Below are positions 34,173-38,143 of a DNA stretch of 64,000 nucleotides, piece by piece. The notes beneath the pieces were generated by a model. It worked only from the letters and a program-made list of their open reading frames with translations, was not told where the DNA came from and did no database searches. Position 1 is the stretch's first letter, and the number at the start of each line of letters is the position of its first letter. The translations under genes were made by a program, and so were the position numbers. The stretch is from a phage: the sequence record PZ583742.1; one strand, 5' to 3'.

Positions 34173-35851
34173 AGACTTTTAAGCTTAAGAAAGTTATCTA
34201 TAAAAATATTATGTCGGTTGGTGCTCAACCGATTACTGTTGAACTGGATAAAGTCCAAAAAACTCTGGTCACCGGCAAGAATGGTGCGGGTAAATCTACG
34301 TTCCTTGAAGCGGTTACCTTTGCTATGTTCGGTAAGCCTTTCCGTGATGTAAAGAAAGGCCAGTTGATTAACTCGAGCAACAAAAAAGATATGCTCGTTG
34401 AATTGTGGATGGAATATGATGGAAAAGAATACTATATCAAACGCGGGCAAAAACCCAATGTTTTTGAAATCTCTTGTGGCGGTAAACGTCTTGATGAATC
34501 TGCCAGCAGTAAAGACTTCCAAGCGGAATTTGAACAGCTCATCGGAATGTCCTATGCAAGCTTCAAACAGATTGTCGTACTCGGCACAGCTGGATATACC
34601 CCTTTTATGGGCCTATCCACTCCTGCAAGAAGAAAACTTGTCGAAGACCTTTTAGAGGTTTCTGTACTGGCCGATATGGATAAGCTGAACAAATCTCTTA
34701 TCCGCGAAGTCAATAGTCAAATCCAGGTGATGGATGTGCAGCATGACGGGATTGTTCAACAGATTAAAATCTATCAGGACAACGAAGACCGTCAAAGAAA
34801 ATTATCAGGTGATAATCTGTTGCGGCTGCAAACGATGTATGATGAACTTGCCACAGAAGCACGTGGAATCAAGACAACTATCGAAGAAGCAACAACAAGA
34901 CTGACCGAGATAATCTTGGGAGAAGACCCTGAGCATGAACTCACGAAGCTAAAGCAGGAATCATTTCTGATTAAGTCGAAGATAGACGATTACCGAAAGG
35001 TTGTTGGTCTGTACGAGAAAGGTGGTTGTTGTCAGACTTGTGCCAGTCAGTTGCATCCAGGAGACCCTATTGTCGCCAGGATTGAGTCAAAGATTGAAGA
35101 ATGTAATGCATCAGCTGATAAGCATAAAGCTCGCCAGAATGCTGTTCAAGAGCAATTTGATACGTATTCTGCTGCAAGACAAAACCAGCGTACAATAGCC
35201 CAAGACATTCAAACTAAGAAACAAACCTTAATCCAGACTGTTGAAAAGGCTAAAAAGGTTAAAGCATTAATCGAGCAAGCTAAGTCAGAATTCATTGACC
35301 ATGCAGCAGACATTAAAATGCTTCAAGACCAGCTTGATAAAATAGTCAAACAGAAATCTGACCTTGTGATGGAAAAATATCAACGTGGCATCCTAACGGA
35401 TATGTTGAAAGATTCCGGTATCAAAGGCGCGATTATTAAGAAATATATTCCTATCTTTAATAAGCAGATAAACGCTTACCTTAAAGTTATGGAAGCTGAT
35501 TATAGCTTTACGTTAGATGAAGAGTTCAACGAAACTATTAAATCTCGTGGACGTGAAGACTTCAGCTATGCATCATTTAGCCAGGGTGAAAAAGCTCGTA
35601 TCGATATTGCATTGCTGTTTACATGGCGTGATATTGCTGCGAAAGTATCTGGTGTTAATATTAACACCTTGATTCTGGATGAAGTTTTTGACTCGGCCAC
35701 TGATGTAGAGGGTGTTAAAGCAATTGCTACCATCCTGAACAAATTGGAAGACACCAACATCTTTATTATCAGTCACCGAGACCATGACCCGGAAGCATAC
35801 GGGCAACATCTCCAGATGAAAAAAGTTGGTCGATTCACTGTTATGGAATAA
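34169..35851 (+). CDS. 46: recombination endonuclease subunit gp46 (Rad50/SbcC-like ATPase)
   Basis: GTG start; KNIMSVG..GKNGAGKSTFLEA..FGKPFRDVKKGQLINS; zinc-hook CCQTCAS; SFSQGEKARIDIALLFTWRD and LILDEVFD; near-identical to T4 gp46. Confidence 0.95.
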   Translation: MKTFKLKKVIYKNIMSVGAQPITVELDKVQKTLVTGKNGAGKSTFLEAVTFAMFGKPFRDVKKGQLINSSNKKDMLVELWMEYDGKEYYIKRGQKPNVFEISCGGKRLDESASSKDFQAEFEQLIGMSYASFKQIVVLGTAGYTPFMGLSTPARRKLVEDLLEVSVLADMDKLNKSLIREVNSQIQVMDVQHDGIVQQIKIYQDNEDRQRKLSGDNLLRLQTMYDELATEARGIKTTIEEATTRLTEIILGEDPEHELTKLKQESFLIKSKIDDYRKVVGLYEKGGCCQTCASQLHPGDPIVARIESKIEECNASADKHKARQNAVQEQFDTYSAARQNQRTIAQDIQTKKQTLIQTVEKAKKVKALIEQAKSEFIDHAADIKMLQDQLDKIVKQKSDLVMEKYQRGILTDMLKDSGIKGAIIKKYIPIFNKQINAYLKVMEADYSFTLDEEFNETIKSRGREDFSYASFSQGEKARIDIALLFTWRDIAAKVSGVNINTLILDEVFDSATDVEGVKAIATILNKLEDTNIFIISHRDHDPEAYGQHLQMKKVGRFTVME

Positions 35852-35885
35852 TGCTTTAAACAAGGATGTTATAATAGAGGCTATT

Positions 35886-36101: not shown

Positions 36102-36509
36102 ATGAACAACGTAACTGCTAAAGATATCCAAGTTAAAACCATCCGCACCGACGCTAACCCACACAACCAAAACCGCATCCGCAAATCCTGGGTCCTGGCA
36201 TGTGATGAAGCATCTGCTGCCCGTCTGCAGTCTCTGCCGCAAGAAATTAAATTCATGCTGTACGGTGTGATTGATACTGATGTATCTGATAAGTGGATTG
36301 AACTGATGCGTAATCACTACAACGATTCACTGGCTGCTGGTGCTAAACTGGTTATCGACCGTGACGGTTCCGAACGTCTCGAAGATGATTACTGTGTTGA
36401 CTTCGACGACCACCTGGTCCAAGCTGGTTCTATTATTGCTGCGCAACTTCCAGAGTATATTGAATCTCTTCCGGAAGCTATCCGCAAACAAATGGCAGTT
36501 GTTGCGTGA
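36102..36509 (+). CDS. rpbA: RNA polymerase-binding protein RpbA
   Basis: 135 aa ORF between 46/45.2 and 45 as in T4; RBS AGAGAGAA. Confidence 0.6.
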   Translation: MNNVTAKDIQVKTIRTDANPHNQNRIRKSWVLACDEASAARLQSLPQEIKFMLYGVIDTDVSDKWIELMRNHYNDSLAAGAKLVIDRDGSERLEDDYCVDFDDHLVQAGSIIAAQLPEYIESLPEAIRKQMAVVA

Positions 36510-37393
36510 ATTTGATTTATAAAATAACCTTTATAACAAGGGAACAAAATAATGAATTCCCTTGTTATTATATTGGTTCAAAGGTTGATACGACATTTAA
36601 TGGCCAAAATATTCTCGATAAAAATAATAAAATTTATACAGGTTCTCCGAATTCAAAATATACTACGCTGTATAATGAATTAATTGATAGCGGTGACTAT
36701 ATTGTTACTATCATTGGGGAAACAAAACAGGACCCAAGGAAAATAGAAAATATTTTTCAAATGTCAGTTAAAGCTGTAACCAATGAGAAATACTTTAATA
36801 AAACGTATGCACACGACAAAAGCCGCTATGATGCTCCTGGATATGCTCCATACCGAAACTTGAAAACGGGTAAAGTTGTTAAATTACATCCATCTGAACT
36901 TACATCTGATTATGTTGGTGTTCGTAAAGATTGTTCAATTTCAGATAAGCACATTCAAGCAATTAAAGACTTCCAAAAAGAATATTGGACTGACGAAGCT
37001 CGACAAGCAAGGTCTGTTGAAGTCAAAAATCGTTATAAAGATGTTGAGTATGCTTTAAAATTCAAAGCTATAATGAATACATCTGAAGTATATGAAAAAT
37101 ATTTAAAATCAATTACTGAATATTGGAATAATTCAGATAATAGAATAAAGGCTTCAAAACGAGCAACCGAACGAAATGCCAACCCTGAATTTAAAGAAAA
37201 ATTTAGGAAATCTAAAGCAAGAGGAACCTGGTTACAGTATGAAGATGAACTTAAAGCATTGTGGAATGCTTTAGGCCAACCAGGGTATATTAAGTTTAGA
37301 AAACACGCCATTGAACATGGGTTTAATGATGAAAACTATCAGGGTGCAATCCGGTCCTGGTCAAATTATTATGTTAATAGGAAAATGAAATGA
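36506..37393 (+). CDS. GIY-YIG-like homing endonuclease (Seg-like), start uncertain
   Basis: From GTG 36506 the N-terminus is NLIYKITFITREQNNEFPCYYIGSK (GIY..YIG-like); basic C-terminal half; inserted between rpbA and 45, which are adjacent in T4; first in-frame ATG is far downstream. Confidence 0.5.
   Translation: MNLIYKITFITREQNNEFPCYYIGSKVDTTFNGQNILDKNNKIYTGSPNSKYTTLYNELIDSGDYIVTIIGETKQDPRKIENIFQMSVKAVTNEKYFNKTYAHDKSRYDAPGYAPYRNLKTGKVVKLHPSELTSDYVGVRKDCSISDKHIQAIKDFQKEYWTDEARQARSVEVKNRYKDVEYALKFKAIMNTSEVYEKYLKSITEYWNNSDNRIKASKRATERNANPEFKEKFRKSKARGTWLQYEDELKALWNALGQPGYIKFRKHAIEHGFNDENYQGAIRSWSNYYVNRKMK
36535..36566 (+). promoter_or_regulatory. perfect 10-bp inverted repeat (hairpin) inside the 5' end of the Seg-like ORF
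   Basis: aacaagggaa (36535-36544) / ttcccttgtt (36557-36566), 12-nt loop. Confidence 0.5.
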
Positions 37394-38085
37394 AATTTAG
37401 TCGTGACACCATCGCAGTTTTGAAAAACTTCACCTCCATCTACTCTGGCATTATGCTTAAACCAGGCAATACCATCCTAACTCGTTCTGTAACTGGAGCG
37501 TCATATGGTGAATCTGAAATCAATGATACAATCGACTTTGAAGCGGCAATTTATGACCTGAACGGCTTCTTAAGTATCCTGGGCCTGGTAACTGACCAAG
37601 CTGAAGTATCTCTGTCTGAAGATGCATCGAATATCATTATCAAAGACCAACGTTCAACGATTCACTGGCCTGCAGCTGACCCGAGCACTATCGTGTTCCC
37701 TGCTAAGAAGATTCCTTTCCCGGTAGCTAAGGTTATCTTCGACCTGAAAGGCAGTGACCTGCAGCAGCTTCTGCGTGTGGCTGGTGGTTTGTCTCTGGAC
37801 ACTTTTGCAATCACCAACAAAGACGGTAAGATTGTTATCCATGGTTATAACCAGCTCGAAGATAAAGAATTAGCGCGTCCATTGTATTCCCTGGTGTGTG
37901 GCGATTACGAAGGCGATGCAGCGTTTAAATTTATCATTAACAAACTGAATATGAAAATGATTCCGGCTGATTACCGTGTTATGCTTTGGGCGAAAGATGA
38001 TAAATTTGCTACGAAGTTTGAAGGCACACAAGCAAGCTATGTGATTGCAATGGAACAAGGCTCTAGCCACGAATTCCAAGATTAA
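37390..38085 (+). CDS. 45: sliding clamp gp45
   Basis: MKFSRDTIAVLKNFTSIYSGIMLK..IHWPAADPSTIVFPAKKIPFPVA..DLQQLLRV..MLWAK matches T4 gp45. Confidence 0.93.
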   Translation: MKFSRDTIAVLKNFTSIYSGIMLKPGNTILTRSVTGASYGESEINDTIDFEAAIYDLNGFLSILGLVTDQAEVSLSEDASNIIIKDQRSTIHWPAADPSTIVFPAKKIPFPVAKVIFDLKGSDLQQLLRVAGGLSLDTFAITNKDGKIVIHGYNQLEDKELARPLYSLVCGDYEGDAAFKFIINKLNMKMIPADYRVMLWAKDDKFATKFEGTQASYVIAMEQGSSHEFQD

Positions 38086-38090
38086 TAAAT

Positions 38091-38104
38091 GGGGCTTCGG
38101 CCCC
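38091..38104 (+). other. UUCG-tetraloop hairpin between genes 45 and 44 (no T-run; possible RNA processing/stability element)
   Basis: ggggc-ttcg-gcccc without following U-tract. Confidence 0.4.
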
Positions 38105-38143
38105 ATGGAGTACAAAGTAGAAACTAATATGAGGAAAATAATA

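Follow-up and report, generated by a model that had tools for sequence, protein, structure and literature searches.

In phage T4 the genes rpbA and 45 are neighbours, and a preliminary description of the DNA considered here was correct in calling them adjacent as far as gene order goes, with a spacer of 55 nt between them. In the window (the whole 64,000-nt stretch of phage DNA analysed, from sequence record PZ583742.1), an open reading frame (ORF) of 888 nt, stop codon included, lies between the two genes. The arrangement is as follows:

36102..36509, + strand: rpbA, for the RNA polymerase-binding protein; host gene upstream of the insert, identified from the annotated syntenic genes of VR26, SP18 and DK-13
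36506..36509, + strand: GTGA overlap of the GTG start with the rpbA TGA stop, a putative translational coupling site
36506..37393, + strand: probable free-standing homing endonuclease gene, 295 aa, GTG start
37390..38085, + strand: gene 45 (sliding clamp)

The coordinates, reading frame and overlap with the rpbA stop that had been described for the ORF all hold. It runs on the + strand from 36506 to 37393 (295 codons), its GTG at 36506-36508 shares bases with the rpbA TGA at 36507-36509 (GTGA), and at the 3' end its own TGA overlaps the gene 45 ATG at 37390 (ATGA). The GC content of the gene is 31.8%, as against 43-47% in the flanking genes. Whereas rpbA ends in GCG TGA here, it ends in GCT TAA in phages without the endonuclease gene, and the compared junctions show only two differences, 36506 T>G and 36508 A>G, which are exactly those that make the GTG.

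That the ORF is an insertion is borne out by about 30 sister Gapriverviruses, which have a 30-bp spacer at its position. Of roughly 30 sister phages only 2 have the gene (3 of 34 Gaprivervirus records); VR26, TH15 and one metagenome contig possess it and the remainder lack it. By these comparisons, close relatives differ sporadically in whether this one fixed intergenic site contains the gene. The rpbA/45 site is occupied in four T4-like lineages, including some Mosigvirus, Tequatrovirus and fourth-lineage genomes, and holds no endonuclease gene in T4 or RB69. The orthologues at this site (VR26 gp053, TH15, FL31, AV109, vB_Eco-B1.1, GiZh and the metagenome proteins P0001-P0004) are of equal length and 52-97% identical over their full length; those of EC121 and AV115 are frameshifted copies. 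None has been characterised, and all are annotated as "hypothetical protein" except that of VR26, a truncated "putative DNA endonuclease" of 210 aa.

The encoded protein

The ORF product is very probably a 295-aa free-standing GIY-YIG homing endonuclease of the SegG type, whose gene has replaced the short rpbA-45 spacer. Two regions can be distinguished within it:

36506..36820, + strand: predicted GIY-YIG catalytic domain, aa 1-105, with the family-invariant residues Y5, Y22, G24, K26, Y44, S47, E81 and N98
36941..37390, + strand: basic, all-helical C-terminal region, aa 146-295, the presumed DNA-binding domain by its AF2 model and its likeness to RB32 ORF093c

Read from the GTG, the N-terminus is (M)NLIYKITFITREQNNEFPCYYIGSK. 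The GIY motif takes the form LIY (Y5) and the YIG motif is represented by Y22 and G24, with both tyrosines invariant in 91 family members; the two motifs are spaced by 17 residues, against the usual 10-11, and SegG is spaced likewise. The assignment to Seg-like GIY-YIG enzymes made in the preliminary description is upheld by a match to PHROG 7504 ("homing endonuclease") over aa 1-103 (E 4e-14), by 34% identity to T4 SegG across aa 1-102, by motif residues that are unchanged across 91 relatives, and by GIY-YIG domains as the best structural matches, at a Foldseek E-value that is not significant. The model has the GIY-YIG alpha/beta fold, a three-stranded sheet flanked by helices. Moreover, E81, in the helix that follows strand 3, and N98, within YFN, are invariant in the 91 sequences and occur in canonical order, as expected of the metal-binding Glu (I-TevI E75) and the conserved Asn (N90). 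No Pfam (PF01541 / PF19835) or NCBIfam model matched the protein, and PF19835 (SegE_GIY-YIG) was matched, weakly, by only 4 of the 91 relatives.

The C-terminal half is indeed basic, as had been noted (pI 9.6; 31 K+R against 21 D+E), and AF2 secondary structure makes it all-helical. It is 32% identical over 142 aa to the seg-like ORF093c of RB32 and aligns weakly, in a NUMOD3-like manner, with the DNA-binding domain of I-TevI. A PDB search with the 91-sequence profile recovered only the NUMOD3 part of that domain and not the I-TevI catalytic domain, and hhalign of the same profile against I-TevI aligned the NUMOD3 helix alone (probability 47%). I-TevI, from T4 td, differs in other respects as well, since it is intron-encoded, which the window gene is not, and identity is only about 18%. 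Its R27 has no evident counterpart: among the 91 relatives no invariant Arg follows YIG, and an invariant Lys26 lies nearby. The post-YIG region is occupied by the invariant K26, Y44 and S47 and is modelled as an inserted beta-hairpin (aa 27-50), which replaces the first helix.

The likeness to T4 SegG extends from the homologous catalytic domain, beginning at Met1 (34% over 102 aa), and the extended GIY-YIG spacing to genomic context. Both genes are free-standing and lie just upstream of an essential replication gene; the segG ORF contains promoters for that downstream gene (PMC2988022), and the window ORF also has predicted ones. The two differ in site (32/59 for SegG, rpbA/45 here), in length (210 aa against 295 aa) and in their C-terminal halves, which are unrelated, the window's resembling RB32 ORF093c. 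They differ too in that the window gene starts at a GTG overlapping the upstream stop.

Translation from the GTG codon

The earliest in-frame ATG of the ORF is codon 86 (36761), 255 nt downstream of the GTG. Comparative evidence supports the GTG inside the rpbA stop as the real start, and the earlier preference for it over the downstream ATG is sustained on two counts. Orthologues at the same site in three other lineages (Mosigvirus, Tequatrovirus and the fourth lineage) have ATG as the homologous first codon, and codons 1-85 differ from those of VR26 by 12 synonymous and 2 non-synonymous changes, which points to purifying selection on this stretch.

There is no Shine-Dalgarno sequence before the window GTG, nor before the start of the Tequatrovirus, fourth-lineage or Mosigvirus orthologues, whose junctions with the upstream gene read ATGA, TAATG and an ATG 5 nt past the stop, respectively. 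Because such a sequence is lacking and start and stop share bases in GTGA, initiation at the GTG may well occur by termination-reinitiation, carried out by ribosomes finishing rpbA. Termination-reinitiation would keep the level of the nuclease low. A similar layout is found in T4 mobE, whose start codon overlaps or adjoins the stop before it and in which the essential gene that follows is served by a downstream middle promoter (PMC2988022); mobE and segF both resemble the window gene in this start/stop arrangement and in having no ribosome-binding site, though mobE encodes an HNH enzyme. Masking of the GTG by long-range pairing was considered and rejected: such pairing is predicted in VR26 and TH15, and in the window the A29T codon change disrupts it. 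In all lineages the initiation region has an ordinary probability of being unpaired (0.37-0.45).

The hairpin in the 5' coding region

A short distance into the gene lies an inverted repeat:

36533..36568, + strand: hairpin of a perfect 12-bp stem and a 12-nt loop, spanning coding positions +28 to +63 (residues 10-21), between GIY and YIG

The repeat had been described as perfect and as lying inside the motif-coding region, both of which are confirmed; its length is 12 bp (arms 36533-36544 and 36557-36568) and not the 10 bp first given. It is directly followed on the 3' side by UAUAUUGGUU. The hairpin is real and unlikely to have arisen by chance, with a dG of -14.3 kcal/mol, a z of -3.6 against dinucleotide shuffles and, when the codons of the first 99 nt are shuffled synonymously, a p of about 0.013. 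Between 35800 and 38300 an Rfam scan with an E cutoff of 1 gave no matches. An out-of-frame ATG in the loop (36552) was set aside, being ACG in VR26 and TH15. As the hairpin begins 27 nt past the start codon, it cannot mask the initiation site, and in this it differs from the hairpin that regulates I-TevI by sequestering the ribosome-binding site (PMC3014915).

What the hairpin does, if anything, may be suggested by T4 mobE and segF, whose coding regions contain intrinsic terminators near the 5' end (PMC2988022). In all three genes a stable hairpin lies some 30-45 nt into the coding region (mobE +33, segF +46, window +28), and by this resemblance the 12-bp hairpin at +28 to +63 would act on RNA to limit expression of the endonuclease. 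Candidate roles are those of a weak terminator or pause site, or of an element that stabilises the 3' end of the rpbA message. The earlier suggestion of an rpbA terminator or attenuator is best taken as a hypothesis, for which mobE and segF provide a direct published precedent. The known hairpins are GC-rich with tetraloops, whereas that of the window is AU-rich, has a 12-nt loop and obtains a lower terminator score.

A serious alternative, though one we consider somewhat improbable, is that the hairpin has no function and arises incidentally from the codons of conserved residues, with extension by chance. Its GGGAA/TTCCC core pairs Arg-Glu with Phe-Pro codons, which are conserved for protein reasons. 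The structure is not conserved base for base in the orthologues: 3 of the 4 rpbA/45 lineages have a 5' hairpin, each with different pairing partners and register, and the Mosigvirus orthologue has none (z of about 0). The arms are identical in three close relatives (VR26, TH15 and L059), so compensatory changes cannot be scored there. Across the family, enrichment for such hairpins is modest and only suggestive (5/21 vs 6/105; Fisher p 0.02, Mann-Whitney p 0.08). Against this, codon shuffles that preserve the protein are rarely as stable in three of the four lineages (p 0.013, 0.007 and 0.007; combined p 3e-4), and the perfect 12-bp stem belongs to the four strongest stem-loops with separated arms that the 64-kb window contains, the only ones of at least 11 bp. 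Related members of the family that split uvsX have far stronger 5' hairpins (z -3.3 to -7), and one of these shows a compensatory C-G to U-A change.

We think it unlikely that the hairpin is a rho-independent terminator that ends rpbA transcripts and leaves gene 45 to the promoters embedded downstream of it. Precedent exists in mobE, with about 30% termination, and segF (PMC2988022), at a similar distance from the start codon, and the stem is extended by an A-rich 5' flank and a U-rich 3' flank. That said, it has no contiguous U-tract, a 12-nt loop and only 4 G-C pairs in an AU-rich stem; its d-score of -32 to -43 falls below those of mobE (-27) and segF (-19); a consensus terminator scan did not report it; and the hairpin tails of the orthologues, AAAUAUUUUU or AUUUAUCC, are poor too. 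A broader proposal, which we regard as doubtful but worth stating, is that SegG-type endonuclease genes recurrently have, as a control element that arose independently in different lineages, a stable hairpin 20-100 nt inside the coding sequence, neither a canonical terminator nor an RBS-masking structure. The role of such hairpins may be to gate termination-reinitiation, to make transcription pause, or to cap the host mRNA upstream.

Gene 45: predicted promoters, likely target and proposed homing

The mapped T4 middle-promoter start P45 (32626) falls within the 55-nt rpbA-45 spacer, which the insert replaces. With the MotA consensus and spacing taken from PMC2988021, two middle-promoter matches are found within the endonuclease gene:

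37051..37074, + strand: P1, MotA-type match, TGCTTTA-N11-TATAAT
37267..37291, + strand: P2, MotA-type match, TGCTTTA-N12-TATATT, about 100 nt before the gene 45 ATG

The 64-kb window contains 8 such matches against 0.89 expected, and these two lie in a gene of only 888 nt. P1 is kept in VR26, TH15, L059 and FL31 and is degenerate in B1.1 and L056. The boxes of P2 are identical at 13 of 13 positions in the Mosigvirus and fourth-lineage orthologues, despite overall identities of only 60-67%, and at 10 of 13 in Tequatrovirus. From this we infer that P2 replaces the displaced middle promoter of gene 45; together, the two MotA-box promoters in the 3' half of the endonuclease gene would restore middle-mode transcription of this essential gene. 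A late promoter starting inside the hairpin, as at I-TevI, is not indicated, there being no TATAAATA in the region; the nearest candidate, TATAAAATA at 36522, is one base too long and is not conserved.

The start of gene 45 itself is altered next to the insert:

37398..37410, + strand: recoded patch, gene 45 codons 3-7, TTT AGT CGT GAC ACC

In all sister phages without the endonuclease gene these codons read TTC TCT AAA GAC ACT. When genomes with and without the gene (HEG+ and HEG-) are compared in three genera, the first 30 nt of gene 45 contain 7/30, 11/30 and 13/30 mismatches, while later 30-nt bins contain 0-3. The Tequatrovirus HEG+ allele keeps TCTAAAGAC and its differences sit further downstream; the recoded patch is therefore not identical between lineages. 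The recoded start is a putative immunity and co-conversion patch that marks the likely target, though it could instead be a recombination scar. On the former reading, in a mixed infection the enzyme would make its cut in HEG-less genomes at, or close to, the conserved 5' end of gene 45, and repair off the HEG+ genome would copy in the endonuclease gene plus the recoded patch.

It is very improbable that the gene is a decaying or domesticated remnant, with an inactive nuclease or with only the DNA-binding part from Met86 onward being made: the GTG without a Shine-Dalgarno sequence, the VR26 annotation from the downstream ATG, the frameshifted EC121 and AV115 copies, the missing canonical Arg and the lack of a Pfam match could be read that way, but the frame is intact in four lineages, the homologous first codon is ATG elsewhere, every family-invariant residue is kept, changes in codons 1-85 are 12:2 synonymous to non-synonymous, and Met86 has no preceding Shine-Dalgarno sequence either.

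The gene is, then, an ordinary further example of the known mobile, selfish GIY-YIG homing endonucleases. The main value of the analysis lies in correcting the records, as the gene of VR26, the closest deposited relative, has been called from an internal ATG and so loses the whole catalytic domain. It also adds rpbA/45 as a new insertion site to the catalogue of T-even free-standing endonucleases, and the start of the sliding-clamp gene as a probable new endonuclease target. If the enzyme is active, it could be used as a site-specific nuclease, and would bias the inheritance of markers around genes 45 and 44 in mixed infections. The cassette illustrates how such a gene can fit into an essential replication operon, with a coupled start that has no ribosome-binding site, promoter-like sites that apparently replace the displaced one, and a 5' hairpin.

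Layout, start codon and protein of the rpbA/45 endonuclease gene

The window is DNA of a T4-like phage in the genus Gaprivervirus (VR7/SP18 group); the neighbouring genes are 46, 45.2, rpbA, 45, 44 and 62. The open reading frame proposed in the preliminary description, running from a GTG that overlaps the rpbA stop, is present and is flanked by overlaps on both sides:

36506-37393, + strand: endonuclease ORF, 888 nt with stop, 295 codons
36506-36508, + strand: GTG start codon of the ORF
36507-36509, + strand: rpbA stop TGA, overlapping the ORF start as GTGA
37390, + strand: gene 45 ATG, overlapping the endonuclease TGA as ATGA

Translation from the GTG gives the N-terminus (M)NLIYKITFITREQNNEFPCYYIGSK. 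The earliest in-frame ATG is indeed distant (codon 86, at 36761), and a protein begun at Met86 would lose the catalytic motif as had been anticipated, dropping Y5, Y22, K26, Y44 and E81. Four lines of evidence support the GTG at 36506 as the start. The homologous codon is ATG in the Mosigvirus, Tequatrovirus and fourth-lineage (metagenome) orthologues, followed in all three by the same N-L-(I/V)-Y, and the annotated ATG of family members generally opens M-(N/H)-x-V-Y. Codons 1-85 carry 12 synonymous and 2 non-synonymous codon differences between the window and VR26, against 19:7 in the remainder of the gene, and so are at least as constrained. Lastly, the end of rpbA changes from GCT TAA in genomes without the insert (HEG-) to GCG TGA in those with it (HEG+), the only two differences being exactly the bases that make the GTG. 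For VR26, the deposited annotation begins the orthologue at the internal ATG (KP007362.1 30166-30798, L001 2261-2893 in our numbering of that locus, equivalent to window 36761-37393) and so gives a 210-aa "putative DNA endonuclease" with none of the GIY-YIG catalytic domain; most of the remaining orthologues carry the label "hypothetical protein".

No Shine-Dalgarno sequence precedes the start in any of the four lineages, and each start either overlaps the rpbA stop or sits no more than 5 nt away from it (GTGA, ATGA, TAATG, TGAtaattATG). The same layout in T4 mobE (UAAUGA) has been read as translational coupling that holds endonuclease levels low (PMC2988022), and the present start would likewise be coupled to rpbA, with the same effect.

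The identification as a Seg-like GIY-YIG endonuclease has held up well. PHROG 7504 ("homing endonuclease") matches residues 1-103 from profile position 1 (E 4e-14), and T4 SegG, an experimentally characterised homing endonuclease of this class given as active (PMC2988022), aligns Met1 to Met1 with 34% identity over 102 residues. An exhaustive HMMER search returned 132 representative clusters, nearly all aligning their own residue 1 to query residue 1. Among the 91 of these used for the conservation alignment, Y5, Y22, G24, K26, Y44, S47, E81 and N98 are invariant, a set that includes the tyrosines of both the GIY and YIG motifs, the YIG glycine, and the active-site Glu and Asn in canonical order. 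An AlphaFold2 model built from this alignment has a mean pLDDT of 89 and places 1ln0_A at the top of the Foldseek ranking, with an E-value that is not significant; curated Pfam and NCBIfam models gave no match to the protein. There is no clear counterpart of the canonical Arg (I-TevI R27), and its region is occupied, in alignment and model, by an inserted beta-hairpin with the invariant K26, Y44 and S47.

The C-terminal half is basic, as described (pI 9.6), and the last 150 residues are predicted to be all-helical in the AlphaFold2 model. NUMOD3 motifs, also found in the I-TevI DNA-binding domain, occur in the C-terminal part of 66 of the 91 family members, whereas the tail of the window protein differs, resembling the C-terminus of the seg-like RB32 ORF093c (32% identity over 142 aa). 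Given this resemblance and the NUMOD3 motifs of most relatives, the protein is a homing endonuclease of typical modular build, in which a nuclease head of the SegG type is joined to a different, presumed DNA-binding tail.

Distribution of the insert and the recoded start of gene 45

Among 34 closely related records, the ORF is confined to those of VR26 (two) and TH15; the rest align as two segments, one on either side of it. Their rpbA-gene 45 spacer is 30 bp in SP18, DK-13, P479 and VR7 and 27 bp in vB_YenM_P8. The insert is 31.8% GC, compared with 46.9% for rpbA and 43.4% for gene 45. Orthologues with 52-63% identity across the full length fill the same site in three further lineages:

Orthologues at the rpbA/45 site
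Mosigvirus (some genomes): FL31, AV109, AV115
Tequatrovirus (some genomes): vB_Eco-B1.1, GiZh, EC121, others
Fourth T4-like lineage (metagenome only): P0004, a metagenome protein

The gene is absent from the rpbA-45 region of both T4 and RB69; in T4 the two genes are adjacent, as stated in the preliminary description, with a 55-nt spacer. Two orthologues are frameshifted and are decaying copies of the element: EC121 has a surplus base in codon 19-20 (L006, its locus, about 1200-1210), and in AV115 the gene is broken into two ORFs (L007, its locus, 1733-1740). Patchy presence at one constant site, together with foreign composition and the occasional decayed copy, is how a free-standing homing endonuclease gene typically shows itself in a population. 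A literature search found no paper on an endonuclease gene at rpbA/45, which is not among the endonuclease sites given for T4 (PMC2988022). Another annotated homing endonuclease gene lies on the opposite strand just upstream of 45.2 in P479, vB_YenM_P8 and FL31 (locus coordinates L013 1-46, L015 1-46 and L004 1-497), ending about 40 bp from 45.2 in the first two; the window lacks this insert, gene 46 ending at 35851, about 36 bp before 45.2.

Gene 45 opens ATGAAATTTAGTCGTGACACC in every HEG+ Gaprivervirus and ATGAAATTCTCTAAAGACACT in every HEG- one, with 7 differences in the first 30 nt and 0-3 in each later 30-nt bin. Differences are concentrated at the gene 45 start independently in two other genus pairs, the first 30 nt showing 11/30 mismatches between T4 and B1.1 and 13/30 between RB69 and FL31, and an AGY CGT GA recoding is common to the window, FL31 and the fourth lineage. 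Because the same localised differences recur in three genus pairs and this recoding is shared, the comparison suggests that the recoded segment moves with the endonuclease gene as a co-conversion tract, though the patch may in part be a recombination scar. We infer that recognition or cleavage takes place where gene 45 opens with conserved sequence, TCTAAAGAYACTAYYGC in the HEG- phages. In Tequatrovirus the HEG+ allele retains TCTAAAGAC, its differences beginning a few bases further on, so target specificity may differ between lineages.

Hairpins early in the coding sequence

The inverted repeat noticed in the 5' end of the gene is real and perfect, but longer than the 10 bp first reported:

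36533-36544 and 36557-36568, + strand: hairpin arms ATAACAAGGGAA and TTCCCTTGTTAT, 12 bp, 12 nt between arms

Only three other stem-loops in the 64-kb window have separated arms of at least 11 bp, and as RNA the repeat folds at -14.3 kcal/mol (z = -3.6 against dinucleotide shuffles). In T4, mobE and segF each carry an intrinsic terminator within the 5' coding region, and termination in mobE was measured at about 30% (PMC2988022). Those hairpins are located at +33 and +46, and the window hairpin at +28 to +63; it has a lower classical terminator index than either, being AU-rich with a 12-nt loop and no U-tract, and a consensus terminator scan did not report it. The hairpin cannot act by masking the start codon. 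The initiation region is predicted to be about as accessible as usual. Our preferred reading, held with modest confidence, is that the hairpin exerts a weak negative control on the endonuclease at the RNA level, which might work by partial termination or pausing, or with the hairpin as a stabilising 3' cap for the rpbA message.

The null hypothesis, that the hairpin is a by-product of conserved codons, is a possibility we hold only slightly more tentatively. The hairpin covers the codons for residues 10-21, which form the long loop joining the GIY and YIG strands; its arms do not vary among VR26, TH15 and the metagenome contig L059, which leaves no covariation to score. The Tequatrovirus orthologue forms a 10-bp hairpin of its own (+20 to +44, z about -3) and the fourth-lineage orthologue an 8-bp one (+24 to +48, z -2.7); folding the Mosigvirus orthologue gave no such 5' hairpin. 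In all three hairpins GGGAA (Arg-Glu or Gly-Asn codons) pairs with TTCCC or TTTCC (Phe-Pro codons), with pairing partners that differ among them. Synonymous-codon shuffles that keep the protein gave p = 0.013, 0.007, 0.007 and 0.64 in the four lineages (combined p = 3e-4). Across 21 non-redundant family members, z fell below -2 in the first 99 nt of 5, compared with 6 of 105 later 99-nt windows (Fisher p 0.02, Mann-Whitney p 0.08). The strongest 5' hairpins belong to uvsX-splitting relatives, HY03, a TG1-like phage and PspYZU05 (z -6.9, -3.3 and -5.1, synonymous shuffles), within the first 100 coding nt:

L009 663-697, L018 2063-2097 and L021 about 2029-2098 (locus coordinates): hairpins of the uvsX-splitting genes

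Between the stems of HY03 and the TG1-like phage there are two changes, a compensatory one from C-G to U-A and another from C-G to U-G. Selection on RNA structure early in these genes is thus plausible, but not universal, on the shuffles, the family counts and the compensatory change; that such hairpins are a convergent regulatory device of the SegG-type family seems rather unlikely. A separate GC-rich hairpin with a UUCG tetraloop (AUGGGGCUUCGGCCCCAU, 38089-38106) lies directly 3' of the gene 45 stop, before gene 44; its + strand has no following U-tract, and the terminator scan flagged only the minus-strand reading.

Candidate middle promoters embedded in the endonuclease gene

The consensus T4 middle promoter pairs a TAtaaT -10 element with a MotA box, (a/t)(a/t)(a/t)TGCTTtA, at a spacing of 12 +/- 1 bp (PMC2988021). 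Scanning the window for TGCTTTA-N11-13-TANNNT gave 8 matches where 0.89 would be expected by chance, including:

35852-35875: MotA-type match TGCTTTA-N11-TATAAT upstream of gene 45.2
37051-37074, + (coding) strand: P1, MotA-type match inside the endonuclease gene
37267-37291, + (coding) strand: P2, MotA-type match inside the endonuclease gene

The first is the positional counterpart of the mapped T4 promoter P45.2, and occurs in HEG+ and HEG- relatives alike. P1 and P2 are both kept in VR26, TH15, L059 and the Mosigvirus orthologue. The P2 boxes are identical at 13/13 positions in the Mosigvirus and fourth-lineage genes, which are 60-67% identical overall, and at 10/13 in Tequatrovirus. Middle promoter P45 of T4 has its mapped start (32626) within the rpbA-45 spacer, which contains TTGCTTTA...TATAAA; by sequence comparison, this P45-bearing spacer is the DNA that the insert replaces. 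P2, and perhaps P1, would now drive gene 45. Endonuclease ORFs that embed the promoters of the downstream gene are known from segG/gene 32 and others (PMC2988022), the same solution as candidate P1 and P2 offer upstream of gene 45.

An antisense match (37234-37258, - strand, TGCTTTA-N12-TACTGT) also lies inside the gene and has a poor -10 element. Lineages share 70-85% identity over the final ~180 nt of the gene (37214-37393), the part with P2 and the ribosome-binding region of gene 45, versus 60-67% elsewhere; either a constraint imposed by the expression of gene 45 or an exchange of later date could account for this.

[quoted passage not shown] What is new here is the rpbA/45 site; the database orthologues are uncharacterised, and the one in VR26 is mis-started.
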